Origin: a virus
Length of the DNA: 23,907 nt
Virus genome (UHGV): UHGV-0188121
Strand: one strand, 5' to 3'
A program made the position numbers. Shown piece by piece: positions 18,001-21,000 of the stretch. How positions within the stretch are numbered: position 1 is the stretch's first letter; each line of letters begins with the position of its first letter.

Positions 18001-21000
18001 AAAATGCAGATCCCTAACGATGGTGATATTACGGCGACCGTAACCTTTGCCGGGCTGGACTGGGAATCAAAGGCCGATGATACGAATTTTATCACAGGCG
18101 AACCTGTGGATAGCGCAGGAGAGCTACGTTATTCGTTTAAGGAGGTTTCAGCAGTAAGCCTGAATGGTGTTGCCGGAGGTAACGGTTTTTGTATCGACAG
18201 TTTTGATATTCAGTTCGATAACAAACTCCAGACTCAGCGTTGTATCGGGACTGGCTCGCCTTATGCAGGAGCAAATATTCCTACTACCTTTACACCGTCC
18301 GGTACGGTGACGCTTTCATGGTCTAAAGCCGCGTGGGAAATCTGGAGTAAAACACTGACTGGAGAAACAGTTCCGTTCAGCTTCACGCTTTCGAATGGAG
18401 AGGGGGCATACACTTTCAGTTTTCCGAAGGTTCAGGTGTCAGGTGAATGGCCTGACGGTGGTAATACCGACATTATCCAGGTTCAACTGAGCATTACCGC
18501 AGCAGATGAAGCGCCTACGATAACCAGAAAAAAAGCCTCTCCGGCTGCCGTGATCGCAAAAGCCAGTGCTGAGGCGATTAGTTGATTTTCCGTTATTTCC
18601 CCTGTGGTGTTGCACTACAGGGACGTTTTGAATGAGGTTATGGATGTTTATTCTTAATCAGAAAATTATCATCGGTGGAGAACGCTGGTTTACGCCAATG
18701 AAGGACTTAAAACCTGTAGATGGGTTAAAACTGTTGGTGGCAAGCAGCGATAACGATCAGTATCGCTCCCGTAATGCATTAATCCGTCGTCACATAGAGA
18801 AAATGGATGCCAGTTTGCATGTCGGAACGAAAGAATTTGATATTGCAAAGGTCGACGAGGTGGATTCTGTTGATGATTTACTTATTGATAACGCCGCTCG
18901 TTATTTACTGAAAGACTGGAAAGGGGTTGGTGAACTGGTGGATGGGGTTGAGGTCGCGCTGGAATATACACCAGAGCGAGGGGCCACGCTGCTCAAGCAG
19001 AATCCAGAGTTGTACTGGCAAATTCTTGCTGAAGCCGCCAGCATCGCCCAGGGAAAAGAGCAGCAGAAGCAGGATACGATAAAAAAGCCATAGCCGCCCA
19101 GCGGTGGTTATCGGAGTTCGGGGGCGAAAAGGGGGAAAAGCAAGGTGGACGAGAGAAAAACTCAGGTTGCCACCGATACCGGAGCCAGAAATAGACCCCG
19201 TTGTCCGTGAGTTATTGTATGCGTACTCAGTAATGTCTCGTTCCAGGCGTTATGCGGGCATGTCCGGGGTTCCGCTGCCTTTATCAATATCTGACGTGCA
19301 CGACTACTTAAAAGCACACCCAATATTGATAGATAGTGATGAATTTGAAGCAGTGATCTTTGCGCTGGATGATCAGTATGTTTCTCAATCCAAAACTGTT
19401 GATGGGATATTGATTAATTAATTTAATATTTTTTAGTAATTGTCTGAATTACAATGTGCACACATATAGTTTGATGAGAGATTGATAGTTGACTATCGAA
19501 TGTGGTGGATATTTTAATGCTGCCAGCCAGATTAATTCTGGCTGTTATAACAATGATTTGTGAAATGACGGTGATTTTATGAAAAAAGCAGTGTTGACTA
19601 CCATTATCGCTTCAGCCTTGTTTGCAACTGGCATTGCAAATGCTGAATTGAAGCAGAATACTATTTCTCTTGGTTATGCCCAAAGCCATGTTAAAGCCGG
19701 TGGAGAAAGCCTTGATGAGAATCCTTCAGGGGTAAATATTAAGTATCGCTATGAGCTGGATGATAAATGGGGCGTTGCATCTTCATTTACGTACACAAAT
19801 CAAGAATACGATTATTATTTTGCAGGCTCTAAAATTGGAAATGGAGAACTGGATTACTATTCACTAGCTGCCGGTCCAGCCTATCGTTTCAATGATTACT
19901 TCAGTGCATATGGCTTATTAGGTGTAGCGCATGGACGTGCTGAAGCGACGATTCTGGGATACTCTGACTCTTCAAGCAAGACTTCGGTTGTATATGGTGC
20001 TGGTATTCAGTTTAATCCTGTACCAAATTGGGTAGTTGACGCATCCTATGAGTACACCAAATTGGGCGATGTGAAAGTAGGTACTTGGATGACCGGTATT
20101 GGTTATCGTTTCTGATAATTTCCTTTCCTCTGTTGTCTGGCCCCGCTTATCAAGCGGGGCTTTTTATTTGTCCGGAGTAACTAAATGACAGAGCAAACTT
20201 CGCGTCTTGCAATAATTATTGATAGCACTGGAGCGAAAAATAATGCTGACAATCTGACCTCCTCCCTAGTCAAAATGACGCAGGCCGGAGAAACTGCTGC
20301 AAATAGCGCAGGGAAAGTGACCAGGGCAACAGAAGATGAGAAGAACGCGCTCGCAAAATTAAAGGCAGCTATTGATCCTGTAGGTGCCGCAATTGATACT
20401 GTCGGTCGACGCTATTCTGAATTAAAGAAATATTTCGGCAAAGGGCTTATTGATAAAGAAGAATATGAATTTCTTGCCCGTAAACTTAATGAAACTACAG
20501 CGGAATTGAGCGGGGTTGCGCAAGCGCAGAGAGAAGCCGCGAAGGCCGGAAAACTTGCTGCTGCCCAGCAGGAAGCTCAGGCTCAGGCCTTTCAAAGAAT
20601 GCTGGACAAGATCGACCCTCTGGCCGCGGCGCTAAGAAATCTTGACCAACAGCAGGATGAACTTAATGCAGCACTTTCATCCGGGAAAATAAATGGCTCT
20701 CAGTTTGATAATTACAGCCGAAAAATACAGGAAACGCGGCGAGAGCTAACAGGAGAGGCTCAGGCAGAACGAGAAGCAGCAAAAGCGCATGATGAACAGG
20801 TTGCTGCTTTGCAACGTCTGATTGCTCAACTCGATCCTGTCGGAACAGCTTTTAATCGCCTGACAGAGCAGCAAAAGCAACTTAGCGAAGCAAAAACCAG
20901 GGGGATGCTTTCTCCTGAAATGTATGAGGAGCTCTCAGGAAAACTCCGTGCTATGCGGAGAGAGCTTGAGGCTACTGAATCGCAATTAAGTAAAACCGGA

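Follow-up and report, generated by a model that had tools for sequence, protein, structure and literature searches.

Small outer-membrane beta-barrel proteins of the kind represented by Ail, Rck, PagC and Lom have roles in adhesion and/or in the binding of complement regulators. Phage HK97 carries gene 15 at the junction between its tail assembly chaperone genes and its tape measure gene, and it was to this element that the term moron was first applied (PMC3594210). Morons have a promoter and a terminator of their own and a deviant guanine-plus-cytosine (GC) content, and the HK97 prophage expresses gene 15 (PMC3594210). Lysogens of lambda express lom (PMC7067206), the product of which has been linked to adhesion (PMC3594210, PMC7067206). 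Here we analyse an Ail-like gene in UHGV virus genome UHGV-0188121, the whole 23,907-nucleotide stretch of which is referred to below as the window. With respect to identity and anatomy, we are close to certain that positions 19383-20153 (+ strand), the limits of which were set by alignment with the empty site, constitute a moron: a gene cassette complete in itself, acquired horizontally and lodged among the tail genes of a lambdoid, Rac-like prophage of E. coli, and encoding a barrel of the Ail clade. The wider explanation, which adds expression in the lysogen and a benefit through interaction with the host, we regard as reasonably probable.

The evidence that carries this conclusion comes from relatives that share the surrounding tail module but lack the cassette. 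Megablast of positions 18600-20400 against phage records returned ten relatives, each with 57% query cover in two pieces that lie approximately 620 bp closer together than they do in the window, and pairwise BLAST against Salmonella phage SPF_0923 (L001) gave 88% identity up to position 19382 and 93% from position 20154. The window holds 771 bp in place of an unrelated 149 bp in the relatives without the insert (SPF_0923, E. coli phages vB_EcoS-* and the Rac prophage of E. coli K-12), the junctions being 19382/19383 and 20153/20154. The tail module is of the Rac prophage type, and the corresponding flanking genes in K-12 are ydaY and ynaA. This empty-site comparison directly demonstrates the insertion into the tail operon that a first-pass annotation of the window had proposed from its sequence. 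Cassettes with identical junction positions were found in PEC422, a porcine strain, and in a third allele, L033 (positions 6001-6558; Logan SRR9333178), which lies in the same Rac-type module. The left junction falls 39 nt inside the reading frame of the T-like chaperone, such that the last 13 T codons (19383-19421) are supplied by the cassette.

The filled junction is rare. A Rac-type junction is present in 1076 of 5426 complete E. coli genomes and the cassette in only 19-20 of these 1076 (approximately 2%), while in a sample of 60 hits spaced evenly along the ranking all 57 full-length cassette-free ones show the short form. This empty form itself has a 165-bp spacer between the T and tape measure genes and, immediately ahead of the latter, a hairpin of its own, so that the interruption of the operon described in the first-pass annotation stands and the tight coupling ascribed to it at this point does not. 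The hairpin of the empty junction (L001 3804-3968; L007, K-12 Rac) is terminator-like (AAACCCACTTCGCGGTGGGTTTTTT, -12.7 kcal/mol, z = -2.2) and the spacer also holds a 28-codon open reading frame (ORF), MVSLIKSMMLLEKSIAWPRNRYIYYYVA; these could be a tiny moron or a scar. We consider it very improbable that the history ran the other way, the cassette having been present in the ancestor of Rac-like phages and the prevalent short form having arisen by deletion. Such a deletion could have left the 165-bp spacer with its hairpin at the same place as a scar, and the lom gene or remnant found after J in K-12 Rac and PEC422 indicates that Rac phages commonly carry genes of this kind. However, the 149 bp of the short form have no detectable similarity to the cassette, making them a replacement for it rather than a subset of it; the short form accounts for approximately 98% of junctions and is shared by E. 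coli and a Salmonella phage; the GC content of the cassette is far below that of its flanks; and the closest relatives of its gene are chromosomal genes of other genera.

The internal anatomy of the cassette agrees with the first-pass description of an AT-rich upstream region, a signal-peptide-bearing barrel ORF ending in GYRF and a strong terminator, all of which are present in place. The stop codon of the T-like ORF occupies 19419-19421, making 19422 the first intergenic base, from which an AT-rich leader or spacer of 157 bp (19422-19578; 31.2% GC) extends to the Ail-like ORF (19579-20115, + strand). The encoded precursor of 178 aa starts with MKKAVLTTIIASALFATGIANA, followed by ELKQ, and ends in GYRF. 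Its first 22 codons (19579-19644, + strand) read as a signal peptide, with MKK, a hydrophobic core and an A-N-A cleavage motif immediately before E, and the mature N-terminus that would result aligns with that of mature Yersinia pestis Ail; the remainder, 156 aa plus the stop codon (19645-20115, + strand), corresponds to a mature Ail-like outer-membrane beta-barrel with eight predicted strands. The unit is closed by an intrinsic terminator (20139-20171, + strand) in which the terminator scan identified a hairpin of 10 bp, 7 of them GC (20139-20161), followed by the T-run TTTTTATTTG. This terminator folds at -18.3 kcal/mol (z = -3.2; an equally stable fold in 2 of 200 shuffles) and is conserved in PEC422 and L033. 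Base composition is deviant, the GC content being 39.0% for the cassette and 41.7% for the ORF (32.4% at third codon positions), compared with 45.8% for the whole window and 46-50% for the neighbouring tube, G and T genes. Extra DNA at a precise junction, a terminator of its own and a deviant base composition are thus all found here, as in other morons.

Profile searches bear out the assignment of the product to the Ail/Lom family, with 96.2 bits to Pfam PF06316 Ail_Lom (cut-off 23, E = 2.9e-27), 95.4 bits to PF13505 OMP_b-brl (cut-off 28.7, E = 5.8e-27) and a match to PHROG 108, 'Lom outer membrane protein', at 9e-47. The gene is already named in RefSeq, where entry WP_001406955.1 bears the description 'Ail/Lom family outer membrane beta-barrel protein'. 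Scores to two more specific NCBIfam equivalog models fall below their cut-offs: 134.1 bits for OmpX (NF006917, cut-off 176) and 91.3 bits for Rck, 'resistance to complement killing' (NF011777, cut-off 258), by which tests the protein is an orthologue of neither. The best sequence match in the PDB is Y. pestis Ail (3QRA, E = 8.8e-56), followed by OmpX (3.8e-29) and Lom (2.7e-17), and identity amounts to 57.5% with mature Y. pestis Ail, over the whole mature chain, and 44% with OmpX. An AlphaFold (AF2) model built from 39 homologues has eight strands and a predicted local distance difference test (pLDDT) score of 88; its N-terminus has a helix at residues 3-15, and pLDDT drops below 50 at residues 13-23. 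Foldseek superimposed this model on Ail (3QRC) with a template modelling (TM) score of 0.95 and a root-mean-square deviation of 1.2 A, and on OmpX (1QJ9) with a TM score of 0.93. Residues G175, Y176 and F178 of the C-terminal GYRF are invariant in the 39 homologues.

Within the family, the clade is that of Ail (57.5% identity) and not that of Lom (33-35%), which narrows the Lom/Ail label given at first pass. The gene does not behave as an orthologue of lambda lom, given this low identity and a location upstream of the tape measure gene rather than after J. Because homologues among 50,697 phage records are at most 44% identical, and lambda-type Lom only 33-35%, the gene is a capture from the Ail clade and not a displaced lom. 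Its database relatives, annotated as Ail/Lom, are 68-70% identical in Salmonella and 52-62% identical in Proteus, Photorhabdus, Xenorhabdus, Arsenophonus and Yersinia. The closest of them are chromosomal, those of Salmonella adjoining fimbrial regulators and EAL genes, and in one assembly contig a relative lies beside thrS-infC. A distant-mode search of the cassette DNA against the same 50,697 phage records returned no match, and no donor could be traced for the leader and terminator, as the loci of Salmonella, Proteus and others resemble the cassette at the DNA level only from within the mature coding part onwards. A one-genome-per-species scan for close relatives yielded 17 loci, the best 60% identical (Proteus) and none informative on the junction.

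The leader suggests how the cassette might be expressed. A permissive promoter scan identified a candidate sigma-70 promoter at 19489-19518 (+ strand), which may be read as TTGACT-N18-TTTAAT, with 10 of 12 matches, or as TTGACT-N15-TATTTT, and the TTGACT block of which is conserved in the three alleles. In the three-allele comparison positions 19425-19470 are rewritten, and from approximately 19470 onwards the TTGACT box and Shine-Dalgarno region are conserved. An alternative promoter, TTGTCT-N19-TATAGT at 19440-19470, was set aside, since the PEC422 allele has lost or rewritten this stretch. The candidate promoter is closely followed, in the presumed 5' leader, by a stem-loop (19524-19544, + strand; 8-bp stem and 5-nt loop in the region AGCCAGAT TAA TTCTGGCT), which folds at -14.0 kcal/mol (z = -3.5), is identical in PEC422 and weakly kept in L033, and might stabilise the mRNA or serve as an operator. 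An Rfam scan of 19300-20250 gave sub-threshold matches only, all but one over the terminator hairpin and the other a weak chance match in the leader. Elsewhere in the window, a Q-like late-gene antiterminator (1514-2056, + strand; phrog_753 'anti-termination protein Q-like', 9.2e-76) offers a means by which late transcription could get past the terminator of the cassette.

Taken together, these features are consistent with the following scheme. In the lysogen the late operon would be silent and the cassette transcribed from its own promoter, probably the TTGACT block at 19489-19518, with the terminator at 20139-20171 halting transcription such that no tape measure mRNA would be made. After induction, in line with the usual moron model and with what lambdoid biology would predict, RNA polymerase modified by Q would read through the terminator, allowing the tail operon to work and adding late expression of the Ail-like gene. 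The precursor would presumably be exported through Sec, cleaved after ANA and inserted by the beta-barrel assembly machinery (BAM) by means of its C-terminal GYRF, to give a mature eight-stranded barrel whose long loops 2 and 3 are predicted to project from the cell surface.

Comparison of the alleles indicates where the protein has diverged. The PEC422 cassette is 93.5% identical to that of the window, and the two differ by 10 non-synonymous and 8 synonymous codon changes, with 7 of the 10 replacements falling in the extracellular parts of loops 1-3. L033 is more divergent: relative to the window, the -35 block is 80% identical, the signal peptide 87% and the last strand and terminator 85-97%, while the central mature part is only 35-65% identical, loop 1 being shorter and loop 2 longer, and the protein as a whole 58%. 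This combination of conserved ends and a variable middle points to recombination or to strong diversifying pressure on the part predicted to be exposed at the surface, the source of which could be host immunity or phages.

The genomes that carry the cassette place it in two contrasting settings. A cassette 100% identical to that of the window is present in seven RefSeq E. coli chromosomes, including E21845/O/A, Ceylon31 and NADC1036, in a prophage that adjoins ompN/uspF and carries both a subtilase-family/pertussis-like AB5 toxin pair and an enterotoxin A/B pair. The window is 99.6% identical to E21845/O/A over 6753-23907 and 90-96% identical upstream of this, except at approximately 2072-3965, for which there was no match; E21845/O/A has the AB5 toxin pair at the stretch that matches no part of the window there. 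In the window this region holds ORFs at 2445-3170 and 3253-3702 that match PHROGs of unknown function, and a CtxA-like ORF follows at 5270-6049. As judged from these alignments, the toxin cargo region appears to be mosaic between otherwise near-identical prophages. The PEC422 cassette, by contrast, lies in a Rac-like prophage with racR, ydaS/T, recET and trkG and no toxin genes. PEC422 also has a canonical 199-aa lom after J (L008 22343-22942), and since it possesses both genes, the Ail-like gene and lom are not positional replacements of each other; in the toxin lineage closest to the window (E21845/O/A, L003 26413-31429) a side tail fibre gene directly follows J and there is no lom.

As to the benefit conferred, we tentatively favour, by analogy with the characterised members of the family, adhesion to host cells or matrix and/or the binding of complement regulators. 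Such a host-interaction role fits a prophage lineage with LT-II-like and pertussis-like toxin genes, and should the protein act as Ail does, prophages of this family would deliver an adhesin or complement-evasion factor together with toxins, a point of practical relevance to type II enterotoxigenic E. coli. A number of observations nevertheless weigh against this explanation, or against the lysogenic expression on which it depends. A strict sigma-70 scan of the upstream region found no promoter on the + strand, and the best candidate from the permissive scan lacks the -11 A. The presence of the cassette in the toxin-free PEC422 prophage indicates that it is not tied to virulence cargo. Residues F54, F68, S102 and F104 of mature Y. 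pestis Ail have been described as critical to serum resistance and to the binding of vitronectin (bioRxiv 10.1101/2020.09.23.310672, the numbering of which we used for residue mapping), and these are Y, L, T and L, respectively, in the window protein. Of the two clusters of lipopolysaccharide (LPS)-recognition residues, cluster I is largely kept (H, K, K and K for Ail R14, K16, K139 and K144), while in cluster II, where S, N, H, D, R and E stand for Ail R27, R51, H95, K69, K97 and K99, four of the six basic residues are not retained. Identity with Ail, 57.5% overall, falls to 26% in loop 2. With critical residues substituted, cluster II mostly lost and loop 2 so divergent, the ligand set of Ail is therefore not simply transferable to this protein, and the virulence role suggested at first pass stays a candidate. 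Finally, the literature searched contained no expression or phenotype data on the protein; Ail, Lom or an outer-membrane protein are mentioned neither by Jobling and Holmes 2012 nor in the LT2d outbreak paper.

Several of the same observations can be read in terms of a barrel that serves mainly the phage, its loops masking or crowding an outer-membrane receptor and so cutting adsorption, either as superinfection exclusion in the lysogen or to avoid wasting progeny on infected cells late in the cycle. Overexpressed lambda Lom gave strong defence against lambda-vir and none against T7, and other small beta-barrel outer-membrane proteins from the same functional selection block phage adsorption (bioRxiv 10.1101/2025.02.28.640651); in addition, HK97 gene 15, the moron at the same junction, encodes a superinfection-exclusion protein (PMC3594210). 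Carriage by the toxin-free Rac-like prophage of PEC422 and a position in the late operon that guarantees high late expression would both suit such a role, as would the loop-focused differences and divergent centre of the alleles, which are equally expected under phage or immune pressure. If the protein works like overexpressed Lom, it would provide a further case for phage-borne small barrels acting against adsorption. However, Lom expressed from a lambda prophage was insufficient to block lambda-vir in the laboratory, and OmpX, a member of the same family that is 44% identical to the window protein, gave no defence (bioRxiv 10.1101/2025.02.28.640651). The window protein is just 33-35% identical to Lom, and no PADLOC defence model matched, though that library has few proteins of this type. 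We therefore regard adsorption blocking as an unlikely but serious alternative, and prefer to it the host-interaction role.

Lower still we rank a generic envelope stabiliser, interacting with LPS and contributing to outer-membrane integrity in the manner of OmpX or Ail, or a neutral passenger that rides with the prophage; either we consider distinctly improbable. The retention of LPS-recognition cluster I, in which K16, K139 and K144 are conserved and R14 is H, would be in keeping with the former, and the rarity of the cassette, at approximately 2% of Rac-type junctions, is compatible with weak selection. However, the ORF, signal peptide, terminator and -35 block have remained intact in three alleles despite 3-40% divergence, and the 8 synonymous and 10 non-synonymous changes, with replacements concentrated in loops, argue for a functional protein under selection at the surface; moreover, E. 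coli already has OmpX. The host-interaction role thus stays first in our ordering, ahead of adsorption blocking and then of a structural or neutral role.

We also entertain, as a rather doubtful proposition, a stronger version of either functional reading: that the toxin prophage supplies, in the form of this barrel, the missing factor for colonisation or serum survival in LT-II-type enterotoxigenic E. coli, or that the barrel is a loop-variable, phage-serving adsorption blocker, alleles of which exchange the exposed centre and share an unchanged promoter, signal peptide, last strand and terminator. Were the second of these true, the chaperone/tape-measure junction would harbour a small cassette-within-a-cassette diversification system.

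The genes on either side of the cassette confirm its position between the G/T chaperones and the tape measure gene, with a phrog_313 match upstream and TMP_2 and Tape_meas_lam_C matches downstream. A tail tube gene (17623-18585; Pfam Phage_tube_2, 4.7e-32) is followed by a G-like tail assembly chaperone homologous to YdaY (18632-19093, + strand; phrog_313 'Tail assembly chaperone', 1.1e-46), the start of which may be 18632, 18644, 18701 or 18734. YdaY is the RefSeq name of the G-like orthologue in K-12 Rac, and the L033 orthologue is marked Pfam Phage_YdaY. Next come the T-like chaperone segment (19104-19421, + strand; phrog_1189, 4.5e-31) and, beyond the cassette, the tail tape measure gene (20185-23418, + strand), which encodes 1077 aa and matches Pfam TMP_2 (5.8e-81), Tape_meas_lam_C (1.5e-25) and TMP_4 (5.4e-24).

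The chaperone pair carries a peculiarity specific to the window. The slippery heptamer A AAA AAG, read from the sequence at 19081-19087 (+ strand) as the site of a -1 frameshift from G to GT, does not vary among six aligned relatives; in the window, however, the T segment lies in the +1/-2 frame relative to G. This is accounted for by one G that is missing at approximately 19139/19140, where the window reads GAAAAGCAAGG and five relatives (Ceylon31, E21845/O/A, PEC422, SPF_0923 and K-12 Rac) read GAAAAGGCAAGG, that is, GAAAAG[G]CAAGG. The deletion is unique to the window among the six sequences, and in the five relatives T lies in the ordinary -1 frame behind the heptamer. With the G restored, T falls in the canonical -1 frame and the G+T fusion gives a single uninterrupted match to phrog_313 (positions 36-248 of 258), whereas in the window as it stands a -1 shift at 19081-19087 would end at approximately 19190. 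A programmed -2 or +1 frameshift from G to T was rejected, as only the window lacks the G and the five relatives are in the -1 frame. The missing G reflects either a sequencing error in a homopolymer or a true lesion of gpGT; in the latter case gpGT would be inactivated and the prophage tail-defective.

In general, the element is a textbook moron at a textbook site and adds little to what is known of phage genome organisation; its mildly interesting aspects are limited to the co-carriage with enterotoxin genes and the alleles with conserved ends and a variable middle. The placement described as non-canonical in the first-pass annotation is so relative to lambda only, since HK97 gene 15 lies at the same junction and the Lom-like genes of Gifsy-2 (STM1043) and Fels-1 (STM0920) are also embedded among lambdoid tail genes, at a junction unused in lambda. 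HK97 gene 15 shares the moron anatomy of the cassette, the promoter of the latter being a candidate, but its product is unrelated, a small YebO-like inner-membrane superinfection-exclusion protein in place of the outer-membrane barrel encoded here. In Gifsy-2 and Fels-1 the gene is flanked by tail genes M and L instead of by GT and the tape measure gene, and the products are only 39-42% identical to the window protein; the Gifsy-2 gene adjoins another virulence moron, sodCI. In a Proteus mirabilis prophage, a 59%-identical homologue lies two genes past the tape measure gene. Lambda Lom is likewise a phage-encoded Ail/Lom-family barrel and a moron of the late region, but it is longer (a chain of 206 aa, or 199 aa in PEC422), has longer loops and sits after J. 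E. coli OmpX has the same fold and belongs to the same family, but is encoded by a chromosomal core gene and has shorter loops 1 and 2. The closest solved structure and closest characterised protein is Y. pestis Ail, which shares with the window protein the 178-aa precursor length class and the C-terminal GYRF, and from which it differs in setting, the Ail gene being chromosomal and that of the window being borne by a prophage within its tail operon.

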